IMG/VR virus record: IMGVR_UViG_3300003323_000328
Coordinates: 27,913 to 91,912 of that record
Source of the DNA: a virus
Length of the DNA: 64,000 nucleotides
Reading direction: 5' to 3' (one strand)
Below the pieces are notes generated by a model that was not told where the DNA came from, searched no databases, and worked only from the letters and a program-made list of their open reading frames with translations. Made by a program: the position numbers and the translations under genes. Below are positions 27,405 through 56,210 of this stretch, piece after piece (position 1 is the first letter of the stretch; the number at the start of each line of letters is the position of its first letter).

Positions 27405-30400
27405 TGGGAAAACAAACTAAAAAAGATTCTTCACTGTTTTCTGATTATTCATTTGATGACCCTGTAGTAAAACCTACAGGGTTTTCTGATTTTGTACAGG
27501 AACCATTAACTAAAGAAGAAGGTAGAAGTTTATTCAGACAAGCTGGATTTCAAGGAGATAGTCAATATGATAAAGGCTTAGTTTTTGGAAGTAATCAACA
27601 AAAACAAAGAGCACTTAATCAACCATGGTATGATCAATTAGGTAATCAAGCCACTAAAATTGTTCCCGGTATTGCTTTAGGATTAATAGAAAATGCTGGA
27701 TATATAGGAGAATTATTTGATGATACGAATGATTATAGAAATGCTTTTACAGATTTTGCTACTAGAAATAGACAAAATATGGAAGAAGCACTTCCTACTT
27801 ATAGAGAAAATCCAAATCAGGTTTTCGATTTAAAAGACCCTGCATGGTGGATGCAACATGGGGAAGGTTTAGTAGAATCCATAGGAGAATTTTTTGTAAC
27901 TGGTGCTGGAATTGGAGGAGCTTTAGGTAAATCTGCTAAAGGTCTTACTTCTGTACTTAAAGCTGGTAGATATGGAGAAGCTTTAGGTCAGGGTATTGCT
28001 CAGTTAGGTACAGCTTCTGCATTAGCATATACTGAAGGTGCCATGTCAGGTGCTCAAGTTTATCAAGATGTTTTAAGTCAAACAGGAGATAAAAAGAAAG
28101 CTGCTGATGCAGCTAGTACAACTGTTCAACTTAATACTATTATCAATACTGGATTAAATTTAACATCTGTTGTACCATTTTTTAAAACTGTTGATAATTT
28201 AGCTAGTACTAGTAAACTAGGTTTATCAAGAAAGGCTGGTGAAAAATTAGATGATTGGTTAGGAAGATTAAATGGTATAGAAGCTAATGGTGTACCTGAA
28301 GCTTCTTTTAGAAAGTCTCTTATAGCAGAAGCTGGACAAGAAGCATTAGAGGAAGATGTAAACTTATTTGCAGAATCTGAAGGTAGGATAAAAGGAGGTA
28401 TTGAAAAAGCAACTTCAGTTGATCCTTTTACACGATTTTTAAATAAGTCCTTTACAGAAGAAGGTGCTTTAAATGCAATTTTAGGTGCAGTAGGTGGTGT
28501 TGGACAAACTTTAGGTTCAGAATTAATTCCATATAGAGATTATACAGACGCTAACGGAAAAGAAACAAAAGTAAATAATAAGACTCTTGCAACTCTTTTA
28601 GATAATAAACAAGCTAGAGATTATATAACTACTTTAAAAGAAGATATAGGTTATGTTACAACTAAACAAAAAGAACTTAATACAGCTCTAGAAGCTAATA
28701 ATAAAGAAGGAGTAGAAAAGGCTAGAGAAGATCTTTTTAATATAGCTGCTTTAAAATCTATAAGAGAAGGTATAGGTGAAGAATTTGGAGAAGATTTAAA
28801 ACAAATAGCTAATACTGATAATTCTCAAATTGGAGAAGATGGCAATACAGATGCCATGAGGAAAGGATATGCCGACTCGCCAACTGACAATGCTTATAGG
28901 GAAAGAGCTGTTAAGAAAATAGCTGATTTACATACTCTTGGAAATGAGTATCAAAATATTAGACGTATTTTTCCTGATAAGTTTGTAGCTGATGAAGTTT
29001 TTAGACAAAGAATGAATGTTTATTCTAATCAGGAATTAGTTGATAATCTTGATAAACAAACGGCTATTCTTACCTCTGAAATACTTAAAACTGCACCTAA
29101 TCCTGAAATTAGCACTGTAATAGAAAACTATGCTAATGTAAATGCTTTAAATCAAGTTATTAGTAGTCTAAAAGAAAATAATTCTAATCCTACCATTATT
29201 AAAGGATTAGAAAATTCTTTGAGTATAGAACAAAAACTACTTGATGATTCTCTACAAGCCGATCCTAGTCTTAAAGAAACTCTTGATAAAAATAAAGGAA
29301 TAGCTAATCAACTAGTGCTTTCAAGAGCACCTCTTGTTCTTTATAGAGAAGAACTTAATGCTTTAAAAGCAGATTATAGTAAACTTCTCAATAATACTAA
29401 AGAAACTAGTGATAGATTACTTAAGAAAAGAGATGAAATAGTAGATACTATTAAGGCTAATGAAGAACAGAAGACTATCAATCAAGAAAAACTTCAAGAA
29501 ACTAAAGACCTTAATACAACTAAACAAGAAAAAGTAACTAAGTTTAGAGAGCCAGCAGGCGAAGGAGTATCTATTATATCCTCTCCTGAAGGAGGTTTTG
29601 ATGTCGTAGATGATGAAGCTCAAGCAGCTTTATCTAATCATCCAACAGTTGAAGAAGCTAGAGTTGCTGCTAAACAGTTAAGTCAACCTAAAGTTAAAGA
29701 AACAATAACTCCAATCAAAGAAGTTCCTCCTGAACCTACTATAATACAAACTAAGCCAGAACCAGATTTCAGTAATCATGGAACAACTGGAAAAGAATAT
29801 AAAGAATTAACTACGACTACAGAAGAAAGTATTGAGGTAATTCCAGATAATAATACTAATAGATCATTCAAAATAGCTTATAGAGCTAAAGAGAATGATA
29901 ACTCTCCTATAAATCCTACTTATTTAGAGTTACATTCTCCTTCTATAAATACTGGTACACCTTTAGTGTTACAAGTGGCTAAAGAAACTTCTTTTTACAA
30001 AGAAGATTTATCAAATGATAAACTTCCTATTGGTATTTATATTAAAGGAGAACTAAAAGGTTATGTATCTCTTCCTAAAGAAGGAGATAAAAATCTTAAG
30101 TTAATTAGAGAATACATTATTAAAAATGGTCCAGTTAATACAACTATTTCTGATAAGGATATGGGGGTGTTAAATAAATCTCAAAATAAACTTACTACTA
30201 CACAAGCTATGCCAGTAGTTAAAGATATTGTAGTGGGAAGAGATAATAAATTTCTTAAGGGTCCTGCTAATGAATATGCTAGTGATTTATTAGTTAATAA
30301 AACCAATACTATACAAAATGGTATTACGTATGCTGTTGTAACTTCTCCTAATGGAAAAGATATGGCAATACCATTAGATACTAAGAAACTTGATAAAGAA

Positions 30401-52838: not shown

Positions 52839-53276
52839 ATGGCATTAGGAATCGAAACAAAAATTTCTTTACAAAAAGCAATCAATTATTATGAAGCTAT
52901 CTCGTTAATTGAAGACGAGGATTTAAGACCTGATTCTACAGGTTCAGTTAGACTTAACATTACAAACAAACTCTCTGCCAAGACAATCTACAAGCTTGGA
53001 CGTTTTAAAGATGTACTTGCTCCTATTAGTAAAAGACTTGATGAAACAAAAAGAAAATTACGTGATGATCATGTTGTTGAAAGAACAGAGCAAGGAAAAG
53101 TATTAAAAGTTGATATGGTTACTTATACTCAAGCAGTTGAATCCTTTATTGCTGGAGAAGAAGAAACAATTACTATACCTGAATTTAAAATGAGTGATTT
53201 TATTGACAAAGATAAATTCATAGTTCCTCTTAAATTTATTTCTTTATTTGGTGATTTAATAAAAGAAGATGAATAA
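52839..53276 (+). CDS. hypothetical protein (possible fibre chaperone)
   Basis: helical; SAKTIYKLGR motif; ATTG-N20-TATATTAG promoter-like sequence upstream (52791-52822). Confidence 0.6.
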   Translation: MALGIETKISLQKAINYYEAISLIEDEDLRPDSTGSVRLNITNKLSAKTIYKLGRFKDVLAPISKRLDETKRKLRDDHVVERTEQGKVLKVDMVTYTQAVESFIAGEEETITIPEFKMSDFIDKDKFIVPLKFISLFGDLIKEDE

Positions 53277-53718
53277 AATCCTACTTGCTCTACTCGGTTT
53301 AATTTGTATTAGTTTAGAAGTTTATAGAAATTACTACTTAATAATTAAACAAAAGATTCGTCCTAATTATAGAAACTCTAATATCTTTAGAGCCTATCTT
53401 TTATTTGCTCTTAATATTTTATATACAGGTAAGATAGCAATATCAATAGAATATACATTTTTATTAATAATGATGTTTGCTGTATTTTTTGATCCAGCTT
53501 TAGCTAAAGCTGAAGGAAAGCCTTTATTCTATATTAATAGAACGGCTCAATCTAGTTGGTATGATAGAATACTTAATAAAATAGGTCCATTTTATCAATT
53601 ATACCTTTTTGCAGAGTTTATATTTCTGTTGATGGCAATAGATATGTATATAATAGGATGGGATAATTTTAAAGATCAAGTAACAGGAAATTATAACTGG
53701 AATAACTGGATATGGTAG
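53269..53718 (+). CDS. multi-pass membrane protein
   Basis: 3-4 hydrophobic segments; next to endolysin candidate. Confidence 0.7.
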   Translation: MNKILLALLGLICISLEVYRNYYLIIKQKIRPNYRNSNIFRAYLLFALNILYTGKIAISIEYTFLLIMMFAVFFDPALAKAEGKPLFYINRTAQSSWYDRILNKIGPFYQLYLFAEFIFLLMAIDMYIIGWDNFKDQVTGNYNWNNWIW

Positions 53719-54203
53719 AAAACAGAGAATTAGTATTACGTAGAATCTTTGACAATGGAGATACTACTGTAGGATATATGATTGAAAAAGGTCCTCATCA
53801 AGCTTTTATTGGATATACTTGTGAAGATCAGAAACAAATAGGTCCTAAAATAAAAGGAGAAACCAGGATACCTGGAAATAAACGTTATAGATTAACTATT
53901 AATAAAGCTCTTACTGGTAAAACAGAAGAATATAGAAAAAATTATACTTGGTTTAAATTTCACATTATGTTAATGGATGTGGAAGGATTTGCCGGTATAT
54001 ATATTCACATAGGAAATGATGATGATGATACTGATGGTTGTCTCCTTATAGGAGACAAACAAAGTAATATTTCTCTTACTCCTGCTATAGCTAAACCAAT
54101 AGAAAATAGTACTAATTGTTTCAAAAGATTCTATCAAAAATATTATCCTCTTCTTGATGCAGGAGTACCTGTTTATCTTACTATTATAGACGAAGAATTT
54201 TAA
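53712..54203 (+). CDS. putative endolysin, DUF5675 / L,D-transpeptidase-like
   Basis: GYTCED, GETRIP, GIYIHIGN..DTDGCLLIG (His/Cys pattern); flanked by membrane and spanin-like genes. Confidence 0.7.
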   Translation: MVENRELVLRRIFDNGDTTVGYMIEKGPHQAFIGYTCEDQKQIGPKIKGETRIPGNKRYRLTINKALTGKTEEYRKNYTWFKFHIMLMDVEGFAGIYIHIGNDDDDTDGCLLIGDKQSNISLTPAIAKPIENSTNCFKRFYQKYYPLLDAGVPVYLTIIDEEF

Positions 54204-54568
54204 TGACCTCTTTTGATTATTGGTATGTAGGATTTATTATTAGTACAACCATGTTGTTCTCAATAATATTTATAGTCCTACATACCCATGTTTGGGTAAG
54301 AAATGGTTATGCAGGTAAGAATAAAATATTAGAGCCACATGAAGTTGATAAACTTGTAGCTCATATTATTGCTGAAGCTTGTTTAGTAATGTTGTGGTTA
54401 GTTGTAGTTATAGAACCTTTGGTCTATCTTCATTATAGATGGACATTTAGTTGGGATTCAAAGGCTCTTATTGCTGGGGGATTTTTAGGGTCTGGAATAT
54501 ATATTGCATTTAAGGGTAAAATACATAAAGTTCTTAATTTAGATGAAAGCACTAAGTCAAATAAATAA
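54203..54568 (+). CDS. three-TM membrane protein (holin candidate)
   Basis: three hydrophobic segments, charged C-terminus; lysis cassette. Confidence 0.55.
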   Translation: MTSFDYWYVGFIISTTMLFSIIFIVLHTHVWVRNGYAGKNKILEPHEVDKLVAHIIAEACLVMLWLVVVIEPLVYLHYRWTFSWDSKALIAGGFLGSGIYIAFKGKIHKVLNLDESTKSNK

Positions 54569-54923
54569 TGGAAGAAGTTGTAAAGTATTTTATCGTATGG
54601 TGCTTCGGTGCATTGTGCGCTTCCGTAGGTTTTTTAATACTGCGATACTACGAACTGAAGCGTTTAAATACACTTCTAAAAGATATGGAAGAGTTCTACA
54701 GGCAAAAATTCGAAGAAATGATCTACAGGATAAATCACAATGGAGCCATTCCAGACAGCGCTTCTCTACGTGGGTTGATAAAATTGATTATATTGGTGAT
54801 AAAGAGTTGTATAACCTCATTGTGGAACTTATGGGGAAAGCAGGAATGGAATACGAAATTAGTTATAGAAGAACTGCAAACGATAATCCATACAGAGTTC
54901 AAATTTCTGGAAAAAGAGTTTGA
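54543..54923 (+). CDS. overlapping out-of-frame basic protein (putative nested gene)
   Basis: 126 codons open in the -1 frame of 54568..55005; synonymous codons of the other frame avoid stops here. Confidence 0.5.
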   Translation: MKALSQINNGRSCKVFYRMVLRCIVRFRRFFNTAILRTEAFKYTSKRYGRVLQAKIRRNDLQDKSQWSHSRQRFSTWVDKIDYIGDKELYNLIVELMGKAGMEYEISYRRTANDNPYRVQISGKRV

Positions 54924-55005
54924 GGAATTTAGTGAATCAGTACATACTATATTAAAGGACTATGACAAGTATCAGCACAACAAAGATAAGAACAGAATGG
55001 AGTAA
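54568..55005 (+). CDS. membrane-anchored coiled-coil protein in lysis cassette
   Basis: TAATG-coupled start; N-terminal TM followed by helical region. Confidence 0.65.
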   Translation: MEEVVKYFIVWCFGALCASVGFLILRYYELKRLNTLLKDMEEFYRQKFEEMIYRINHNGAIPDSASLRGLIKLIILVIKSCITSLWNLWGKQEWNTKLVIEELQTIIHTEFKFLEKEFEEFSESVHTILKDYDKYQHNKDKNRME

Positions 55006-55306
55006 ACCTTTTATAGATTTTTTAGAATCTTTTAAATCTACTAAAGGTGGATTTTCCTATAAAAGATTAGCTGCTTTTGGTGGTCAAATAACTGCTACTT
55101 ATATAACTGTTAGATATGTAACACCAGACAACCTATTATACGTATTAATAGTATGGCTGTTATTTATTCTTTTATGTATGGCTGTTATAGAATTTAAAGA
55201 TGTAGTTCAACTTAAAAATGGAACTACTGTAGAAAAAGTTTTTAAGGAAGCTGAATATAAAGAAACTACAACTTCTGTACAAGATGAGTCTGAAAGTATC
55301 AAATAG
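54962..55306 (+). CDS. two-TM holin-like protein
   Basis: GFSYKRLAAFGG followed by two hydrophobic segments and a charged tail. Confidence 0.55.
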   Translation: MTSISTTKIRTEWSKPFIDFLESFKSTKGGFSYKRLAAFGGQITATYITVRYVTPDNLLYVLIVWLLFILLCMAVIEFKDVVQLKNGTTVEKVFKEAEYKETTTSVQDESESIK

Positions 55307-55655
55307 TCTAGTAATATTTATATTAATAATACTAGTAATAGCGTTACAATATTACCTGCAAAGTAAATATGTAACAGCTAAAACAAAAATACAGCTTTAT
55401 GAAAAAGAACTGAAGATACTAGAAGATACTATAAAAAGTAGAGATAAACAACTTCTAATAGAAATTAATAGAAGAAAAGAAGATAGGAAAAGAGATTCTC
55501 TTACTATAGCAGATATTAAAAGTCTCAAAAAGAAAGATAGTATACTACATATAGTTACTATTAATAAGCTTATTACTAAGTATAAATCATATACAGATGA
55601 AAAAATTGATTCTCTTATCACTAAGGAATATTATACTAGTACTCATAACCCTTAA
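55284..55655 (+). CDS. i-spanin-like protein
   Basis: single N-terminal TM plus long coiled coil. Confidence 0.55.
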   Translation: MSLKVSNSLVIFILIILVIALQYYLQSKYVTAKTKIQLYEKELKILEDTIKSRDKQLLIEINRRKEDRKRDSLTIADIKSLKKKDSILHIVTINKLITKYKSYTDEKIDSLITKEYYTSTHNP

Positions 55656-56016
55656 TTGTACTTTCTCTATAAGCCGGTGTCAAGATCGTAATAATCTTCA
55701 GATGCCCACAGTCAGACAAATTAAGGAATGGGCACTTTCCTTAAATGAACAGAATAAAGTATATAGTAAAAAATTACTTATTAAAGATAGTATTATACAA
55801 GAACAAGATACTCTTAATAAATCATATCTTAATAGAATTAAATCTTATGAAAGAGATTCTATAAGTTATGAAGTTCAGAAAGCTGCTTATAGAGAAAGTA
55901 TTATGGTGAGGGATTCTGTGATCCAAGATAAAAACAAGATTATTAAACTACGTACTATACAACGTAATAGTCTAGGACTATTAACTATAATAGTAATAGT
56001 CCTAGCCATACTTTAA
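55597..56016 (+). CDS. spanin-like protein (signal/lipobox-like N-terminus, coiled coil, C-terminal TM)
   Basis: MKKLILL...LITLNC; overlaps preceding gene; C-terminal LGLLTIIVIVLAIL. Confidence 0.55.
   Translation: MKKLILLSLRNIILVLITLNCTFSISRCQDRNNLQMPTVRQIKEWALSLNEQNKVYSKKLLIKDSIIQEQDTLNKSYLNRIKSYERDSISYEVQKAAYRESIMVRDSVIQDKNKIIKLRTIQRNSLGLLTIIVIVLAIL
55972..56005. terminator. perfect 12-bp hairpin at the convergence of the two transcription blocks
   Basis: CTAGGACTATTA-10 nt-TAATAGTCCTAG; no clear U tract. Confidence 0.4.
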
Positions 56017-56210
56017 GAATTGCTATAAATAGCAGAAAGTAAAGTAGAAGACTTTTTAATTCTATCAACTTCTTCTAGCAACTGTTTCCAATTAGCTTCA
56101 TTAAGTTGAGTAGTATTTTTACCAAGATGATTATATAGTTCATTAGTATTATTACTGATAACTTTTAATGCATCTAGTATTTGTGTCTTATAATCCTCTA
56201 ACTCCTCCAT
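56013..56210 (-). CDS. hypothetical protein
   Basis: TAATG-coupled to upstream gene; stop overlaps the convergent gene's stop. Confidence 0.65.
   Translation of the reverse strand: MEELEDYKTQILDALKVISNNTNELYNHLGKNTTQLNEANWKQLLEEVDRIKKSSTLLSAIYSNS

Follow-up and report, generated by a model that had tools for sequence, protein, structure and literature searches.

A 356-nt segment near the 3′ end of a phage late operon appears to hold two protein-coding genes that lie on the same strand and are offset by one base. The phage is IMG/VR virus record IMGVR_UViG_3300003323_000328, an uncultured double-stranded DNA phage of 92 kb from a root metagenome with a GC content of about 30%. The stretch that was analyzed (the window) is 64,000 nt long and comprises positions 27,913 to 91,912, the last 64 kb of the 91,912-bp record, which is rated complete. 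Judged from sequence, the two frames have the properties by which overlapping gene pairs are recognized: their joint openness exceeds chance, both are open and conserved in a relative (one phage, whose DNA was inferred), and the amino acid sequence of each frame is conserved and has homologues of its own. From these properties we infer that both frames are translated, where the second one starts, and which of them was overprinted on the other. The features of the segment are as follows, in window coordinates.

54543–54923, plus strand: proposed frame-0 gene, 126 aa, codon starts 0 mod 3, from ATG 54543 to TGA 54921–54923
54568–55005, plus strand: frame-1 gene, 145 aa, codon starts 1 mod 3
54568–54923, plus strand: dual-coded segment, 356 nt, two frames offset by one base
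54543–54545, plus strand: candidate frame-0 start codon, directly after the frame-0 stop TAG 54540–54542 and within the last 26 nt of the upstream gene
54566–54570, plus strand: TAATG junction, in which the stop of the upstream membrane-protein gene shares one base with the frame-1 ATG
54630–54636, plus strand: T_TTT_TTA heptamer in frame-1 phase, a candidate −1 slippery site
54768–54920, plus strand: conserved frame-0 C-terminal domain, residues 76–126

A first-pass annotation made from the letters alone had described two same-strand frames that stay open together for about 355 nt between flanking genes in the third frame. The overlap measures 356 nt, and both flanking genes (54203–54568 and 54962–55306) are in frame 2 mod 3. 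Frame 0 opens 25 nt upstream of the frame-1 ATG and closes 82 nt short of the frame-1 stop. The earlier suggestion of a nested lysis gene starting at 54543 holds as far as a gene of its own in the second frame is concerned, but these coordinates show that it is not nested. Stops were said to appear at once after 54923, and four further frame-0 stops do fall within the 22 codons past the TGA. Stop-codon recoding was considered and ruled out, given a TAG two codons past the frame-0 TGA and standard-code open reading frames (ORFs) of at least 120 aa that cover 83% of the genome; this coverage gives no sign of stop-codon reassignment. ARAGORN found no tRNA genes in the 64-kb window. The gene finders behind the record called frame 1 alone and missed frame 0, and a word-based protein search with the frame-0 ORF of the window matched no database entry.

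Openness and codon choice in the overlap

The probability that frame 0 is free of stops, given the frame-1 protein over codons 1–118, was calculated by exact dynamic programming over synonymous codons as 2.2 × 10−10. A simpler product of site probabilities gave 3.9 × 10−12. The reverse probability, that frame 1 is free of stops given the frame-0 protein, was 2.9 × 10−4 by the exact method. The longest −1-frame run in 5000 synonymous resamplings had a mean of 25 codons and a maximum of 57, compared to the 117 codons observed. The frame-0 run is the longest alternative-frame opening in the genome; in second place among its 67 long ORFs is a run of 80 codons in the +1 frame of a 498-codon gene. 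Because the genome is extremely AT-rich, the open second frame is beyond chance, and a chance origin of frame-0 openness is excluded. The other top alternative-frame runs (53–80 codons) are all in +1 frames, and −1-frame runs are normally very short, so a search for open −1 frames is a sensitive way to find hidden genes in AT-rich phages of this kind.

Codon choice in the overlap departs from that of the genome. Across the genome, 87–91% of the codons for Tyr, Phe, His, and Asp are the T-ending ones (TAT, TTT, CAT, and GAT), and Y-ending codon pairs are about 88–91% T-ending. The seven frame-1 C-ending codons that the first-pass annotation picked out, at places where the T-ending synonym would put a stop in frame 0 (TAC GAA, TAC AGG twice, TTC GAA, CAC AAT, GAC AGC, and TTC AAA), are all present, and all lie downstream of the heptamer. 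In the part of the overlap that follows the heptamer, a T-ending synonym would stop frame 0 at 19 codons, and none of the 19 ends in T (expected 12.1, SD 1.9). Codons that are rare in the genome, such as ACG and CTG, appear at these stop-risk sites. T-ending codons are also depleted at the sites that carry no stop risk (17 observed versus 26.4 expected, about −3 SD). Therefore, the amino acid identity of frame 0 is selected, beyond mere stop avoidance.

Base composition gives the same picture. The third position of frame 1 in the overlap is 38% A, 16% C, 27% G, and 19% T, compared to 37% A, 5% C, 8% G, and 50% T for third positions of the genome. It is nearly identical to the first position of the genome (37% A, 13% C, 31% G, and 19% T). 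Under genome codon usage, the overlap has a log-likelihood per codon of −3.97 when read in frame 0 and of −4.27 when read in frame 1, compared to means of −3.61 for genes and −4.24 for +1 off-frames. Purifying selection on both products would explain why the third positions of the frame-1 gene behave like first positions and why T-ending codons that make stops are excluded.

An assembly or sequencing artifact, in which an indel or two compensating indels make one gene look like two frames, is a concern for a metagenome-assembled record of modest depth, and an indel was the error against which the first-pass annotation had advised checking the reads. The Logan independent assembly of the source run places 53700–56100 in one 75.8-kb contig at a depth of about 10.6, with 0 differences and 0 gaps over 2401 nt. 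There is no sign of an indel in the overlap in these contigs, which were compared in place of raw reads. The proteins described below that come from another sample align to the two frames without gaps over 142 and 121 aa, and both full-length frames exist in a second phage. An artifact is extremely improbable.

Homologues of the two frames

The first-pass annotation had proposed homology searches with both frames, and each frame found relatives of its own. The frame-0 ORF was the query for an exhaustive HMMER profile search of 1.84 billion representatives, the only exhaustive search made, and the frame-1 homologue came from a word-indexed protein search. The frame-1 homologue, P0002, has 146 aa and is 69% identical without gaps over 142 aa. 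HMMER identified P0003 as the closest frame-0 homologue (122 aa, 53% identity, E = 2.9 × 10−31, ungapped over 121 aa), along with two distant homologues, P0005 (138 aa, 30%, E = 1.2 × 10−4) and P0006 (118 aa, 35%, E = 4.7 × 10−4). A repeat protein matched in this search was judged spurious. A word-based search with the alignment of the frame-0 homologues returned no further members, and the genome contains no paralogue of frame 0.

The distant frame-0 homologues are called as separate genes of 118–138 aa, each with its own Met, and have non-hydrophobic N-termini of 62–75 aa. When P0005 and P0006 were compared to the genome by tblastn, they matched frame 0 alone. The similarity lies in a C-terminal domain of about 50 aa, for which pairwise BLASTP gave E = 2 × 10−12 (43% identity) between the window and P0006, E = 1 × 10−10 between P0003 and P0005, and E = 2 × 10−7 between P0005 and P0006. 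The domain has the motif W-x-D-x2-[DY]-[YHF]-[IV]-G ... G-[ML]-[EQ]-Y-x3-Y-x2-T-A-x5-R, and D79, G85, G101, Y104, Y108, T111, A112, and R118 are invariant in the alignment. A motif shared in this way at 30–43% identity could not have survived in off-frame translations of a diverged frame-1 gene; therefore, frame 0 represents a protein family of its own.

P0002 and P0003 fit together as the two frames of one locus. The two proteins (with the stop of P0003) can be co-encoded only at an offset of +8 codons, which is the register of the window, and there they are compatible over all 115 codons; other offsets allow 6 codons or fewer. Because this is the sole compatible register, the relative keeps both frames open, and P0003 is the frame-0 ORF of the P0002 locus. 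The homologues could have kept one frame open, and here they have kept two. Counted from the frame-1 ATG, P0003 has the same start position as the frame-0 ORF of the window, and its stop comes four codons sooner. Of the 345 bases of the overlap in the relative, 332 are fixed by the two proteins. All 21 stop-risk sites in the relative avoid T (P about 5 × 10−10 under the codon usage of the window genome). Thirteen of the 21 are at codons or contexts unlike those of the window, such as Thr96 ACC versus ACG, Leu30 CTA versus CTG, and a new ATC|AA that arises from a Thr-to-Asn change. Since the stop-avoiding codons differ, stop avoidance has been maintained since the two phages diverged.

Both frames show the marks of selection between the two phages. 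The nucleotide differences at frame-1 positions 1, 2, and 3 are 21, 21, and 38–51 (of 115). About 18% of the first and second positions differ between the phages, compared to at least a third of the third positions, and this third-position excess shows that frame 1 is clearly selected. It is unusual that position 2 of frame 1, which is position 3 of frame 0, is as variable as position 1, and this fits a second constraint. Within the frame-0 domain (frame-1 residues 67–113), identity is 64% for frame 1 and 60% for frame 0, with mean BLOSUM62 scores of 3.2 and 3.3. Frame 1 is better conserved across residues 24–66 (81% versus 65%). Opposite frame-1 residues 1–23, the similarity of the two frame-0 sequences is close to random (6/23 identical, mean BLOSUM62 of 0.6). 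Past the overlap, frame-1 identity is 70%, and the hydrophobic N-terminus of the frame-1 protein is conserved. The changes between the window and P0003 do not significantly avoid the positions conserved between P0005 and P0006 (P = 0.47).

Searches for further DNA were negative. GenBank phages contained no relative of either frame by DNA search or tblastn. Scans of IMG/VR, JGI metagenomes, and GTDB genomes with protein queries, an alignment, and back-translated motifs found no related DNA. A scan of IMG/VR with the frame-0 motif gave 10 loci, all of which proved false on translation.

The record's gene call of frame 1 alone would suit a locus in which a single frame is translated and the other is a by-product, a relic such as a recently inactivated ancestral frame, or the result of a constraint on an RNA or DNA element. 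We give this very little credence. Both frames are open in two diverged phages that made independent stop-avoiding codon choices, and frame 0 has the distant protein-level homologues P0005 and P0006. Frame 1 has the position-3-variable pattern of a selected frame and a conserved transmembrane (TM) segment. Four stretches folded between 54520 and 54740 had no significant RNA structure.

Probable translation of frame 0 and the likely age of the two frames

The pair is best explained as two separately started overlapping genes on one strand, with frame 0 translated from its own ATG at 54543, a reading we hold with moderate confidence. A start-context weight matrix was built from 67 presumed gene starts. 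ATG 54543 scored 1.72, a value in the 91st percentile of all 2831 ATGs that presumed true starts also reach; the start of the upstream gene scored 1.96 and the internal ATG 54597 scored −2.66. The register of ATG 54543 is identical in the relative (P0003). P0005 and P0006 also favor an own start, since each begins with its own Met and has a non-membrane N-terminus about as long as that of frame 0. The stop/start arrangement TAATG is typical of translational coupling. Because its ATG overlaps the upstream stop, the frame-1 gene would probably be translated by coupled re-initiation at this junction. The frame-0 gene would most likely be started at its own ATG to give a 126-aa protein.

The heptamer offers another route into frame 0. 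Ribosomes that slip by −1 at T_TTT_TTA (54630–54636), instead of or besides initiating at 54543, would make a fusion of about 118 aa that joins anchor residues 1–23 of the frame-1 protein to the basic region and domain of frame 0. The heptamer is phased for a −1 shift and stands at the end of the TM segment, both as the first-pass annotation had it; the codons GGT TTT TTA (54628–54636) encode G21, F22, and L23 within hydrophobic segment 4–27. HIV-1 gag-pol uses T_TTT_TTA as its slippery sequence. The position of the seven C-ending codons downstream of the heptamer would fit such a shift, as would the frame-0 identity between the two phages, which is 26% before the heptamer and 63% after it. 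This jump is equally explained by an invariant frame-1 block, GFLILRYYELKRLNT, that starts there. The relative keeps TTT_TTA, but its sequence is G_TTT_TTA (GGG TTT TTA), so the canonical X_XXY_YYZ form is changed in this one relative. Mismatches at the first position are tolerated in some viral slippery sites.

Other observations count against slippage. In-phase X_XXY_YYZ heptamers are common, with 125 in 25,168 codons, and T_TTT_TTA itself occurs six times elsewhere. The 64 and 104 nt downstream of the heptamer fold with minimum free energies of −6.6 and −10.2 kcal/mol, no better than shuffled sequences (z = 0.08 and 0.25, in a folding model that leaves out pseudoknots). The earlier remark that no convincing downstream stimulator was visible is borne out, and structure 5–9 nt downstream, the usual companion of an in-phase heptamer, was not found. 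Neither P0005 nor P0006 is an anchored fusion; both are stand-alone ORFs whose N-termini are not hydrophobic. Frameshifting at this site is unlikely. The first-pass annotation had posed a gene from 54543 against one membrane anchor with two alternative soluble domains. What the two proposals share, a second frame that is translated and selected, draws strong support from these data, and the gene from 54543 fits them better than the frameshift does.

Several points weigh against two separately started genes. The DNA of the relative was reconstructed from the P0002 and P0003 proteins, and it is one close relative. The first 31 residues of frame 0 are identical at 8 of 31 positions between the two phages (mean BLOSUM62 of 0.6), and frame-0 conservation starts directly past the heptamer. 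No significant similarity to P0005 or P0006 was found in the N-terminal 70 residues either, and with an N-terminus so little conserved, ATG 54543 is a probable start at most. Known members of the frame-0 family number four or five, and neither a fold nor a function could be assigned to it (model predicted local distance difference test (pLDDT) score of 52). No RNA run with the stretch was listed; the stretch was found in the source run alone, and two sister runs did not cover it.

Frame 0 is probably the ancestral frame and frame 1 the overprinted one. The codon usage of frame 0 is nearer to that of the genome, and its homologues extend to more distant sequences; both are usual criteria for the ancestral frame in overprinted genes. 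The narrow distribution of frame 1 is a weak argument for its age because frame 1 was searched by the word-based tool alone, a further point to set against this view. The C-terminal approximately 95 codons of the frame-1 gene would then have been overprinted on the older frame-0 gene.

The two starts and the heptamer could also form a lysis-timing unit peculiar to this lineage. In such a unit, starts 25 nt apart would set a constant ratio between a holin-like membrane protein and a basic soluble regulator, and slippage would tether some of the soluble domain to the membrane anchor. We regard this as a long shot. If true, lysis would be timed by frame choice, unlike the same-frame dual starts of classical holin/antiholin genes.

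The encoded proteins, the putative lysis region, and known overlapping genes

The frame-0 product is predicted to be basic and soluble. Its isoelectric point (pI) is 10.4, and that of the N-terminal 75 residues is 11.7. Hydropathy analysis found no hydrophobic 19-mer or segment. AlphaFold2 models had pLDDT scores of 46 and 52, and the latter, a low-confidence model, has a long helix followed by a C-terminal β-α-β-β unit of about 50 aa. Frame 0 had no Pfam or PHROGs match. A PDB sequence profile search returned noise only (Bcl-x, E > 0.08), and Foldseek had no match at E ≤ 0.001, the best being ACT-like half-domains at E of about 0.2. VIA-align matched generic long helices alone (Z about 6), and the ESM Atlas contained no usable match. 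A lysis role for the frame-0 product is suggested by its position alone. An Rz1-type lipoprotein was considered for frame 0 and ruled out, as it has no signal peptide or lipobox and is in the wrong frame.

The frame-1 protein would be a membrane-anchored helical protein. Hydropathy analysis gives a TM segment at residues 4–27, a weak hydrophobic segment at residues 64–88, and a charged helical C-terminus; the charge distribution suggests a topology with the C-terminus inside. Segment 64–88 (54757–54831, ASLRGLIKLIILVIKSCITSLWNLW, Kyte–Doolittle hydropathy of 1.77) is conserved in the relative and shares its bases with the start of the frame-0 domain. This segment may form either a second TM helix or an amphipathic one. 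The protein is holin-like in outline only, in that its size, TM segments, and DUF5675 neighbor fit. The sole family hint is its Atlas score of 0.77 to a cluster with 10% Holin_BhlA, which is sub-threshold and below any trust level. Frame 1, whose TM segment and helical tail could also suit the outer gene of a spanin pair (i-spanin), had no spanin match in PHROGs or Pfam.

The segment stands among other small genes on the plus strand.

53269–53718, plus strand: small membrane protein, by hydropathy
53712–54203, plus strand: DUF5675 protein, candidate cell-wall peptidase (endolysin), Pfam PF18925, E = 4.7 × 10−17
54203–54568, plus strand: 121-aa membrane protein with at least two hydrophobic segments, holin-like by size and position only
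54962–55306, plus strand: 114-aa membrane protein, start overlaps the frame-1 gene by 44 nt
55284–55655, plus strand: Rz-like candidate spanin with a TM segment and coiled coil, weak PHROG Rz-like match (E = 0.003)
55597–56016, plus strand: second candidate spanin partner, +1 frame, 59-nt overlap, signal-peptide-like N-terminus ending in ...LITLNC (Cys)

A DUF5675 lysin has been grouped with C82-type peptidases by structure (2026 preprint, 10.64898/2026.04.11.717860). The last two genes (55284–56016) are a candidate overlapped two-component spanin pair. The product of 55597–56016 has an unusual extra C-terminal hydrophobic segment at residues 120–139. The eight conventionally called genes in 53269–56016 abut or overlap by 7, 1, 1, 44, 23, and 59 nt, with frame 0 uncounted. 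Five of the eight code for small membrane proteins, which surround a single DUF5675 peptidase-like gene; a putative lysis module so rich in membrane proteins is unusual. Lysis cassette is a reasonable label for the region, one that relies on weak family matches. The operon is a long one on the plus strand, and the coding strand and GC skew switch near 56,000.

Lysis genes that share DNA in different frames have precedents. Embedded spanin genes of lambda (Rz/Rz1) and T7 (18.5/18.7) are treated in PMC6139136 and PMC5295617. The window pair resembles them in its place in a lysis cassette, in having one N-terminally anchored helical partner, and in the separate starts that it probably has. The Rz1 gene is contained entirely in Rz, in the +1 frame, and its product is a short lipoprotein that has a signal peptide and a lipobox Cys. 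In contrast, the frame-0 protein is in the −1 frame from an upstream start and is predicted to be basic and soluble, with neither lipobox nor hydrophobic segment. The overlap is also longer here (118 codons), and a separate candidate spanin pair lies 300 nt downstream. The phiX174 D/E pair (scaffold gene D and lysis gene E) is alike in that, as is probable here, a gene whose product has an N-terminal TM segment arose in the +1 frame over the preexisting gene of a soluble protein, and codon usage marks the soluble frame as ancestral. It differs in that phiX174 is a 5.4-kb single-stranded DNA phage under strong size constraint with E fully embedded, whereas this genome is 92 kb of double-stranded DNA. 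The membrane-protein gene here extends past the older gene at its 3′ end, and its lytic activity is a candidate function.

The −1 frameshift sites of lambda G/GT, T7 10A/10B, and HIV-1 (U_UUU_UUA) resemble the heptamer in that an in-phase X_XXY_YYZ precedes a long open −1 frame, which would give products with a shared N-terminus. Known sites are near the end of the upstream ORF and are conserved, whereas this one is 23 codons in, lacks a detected stimulator, and is noncanonical in the relative; here the −1 frame also has its own upstream ATG. The holin/antiholin dual start of lambda S105/S107 is alike in that two close starts (25 nt apart here) head a membrane-protein gene in a lysis cassette and could fix a product ratio. 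The lambda starts share a frame and give products that differ by a few residues, whereas here each start has its own frame and the two proteins are unrelated.

Long out-of-frame overlaps are familiar from tiny phages and RNA viruses. Large tailed phages rarely have them, and gene finders routinely overlook them there. The pair joins the known class of overprinted phage genes, and the principle is not new. It adds an unannotated hidden gene to a poorly understood phage lysis region, from a family that has no name and no Pfam or PHROG model. The case is unusually clean, with an AT-rich genome, independent codon choices in a relative, and distant homologues that look stand-alone. It is a good model for the overprinting of a membrane-protein gene on an existing gene in a double-stranded DNA phage, and it is a concrete place to ask whether frame choice, by two starts or by slippage, sets protein ratios.

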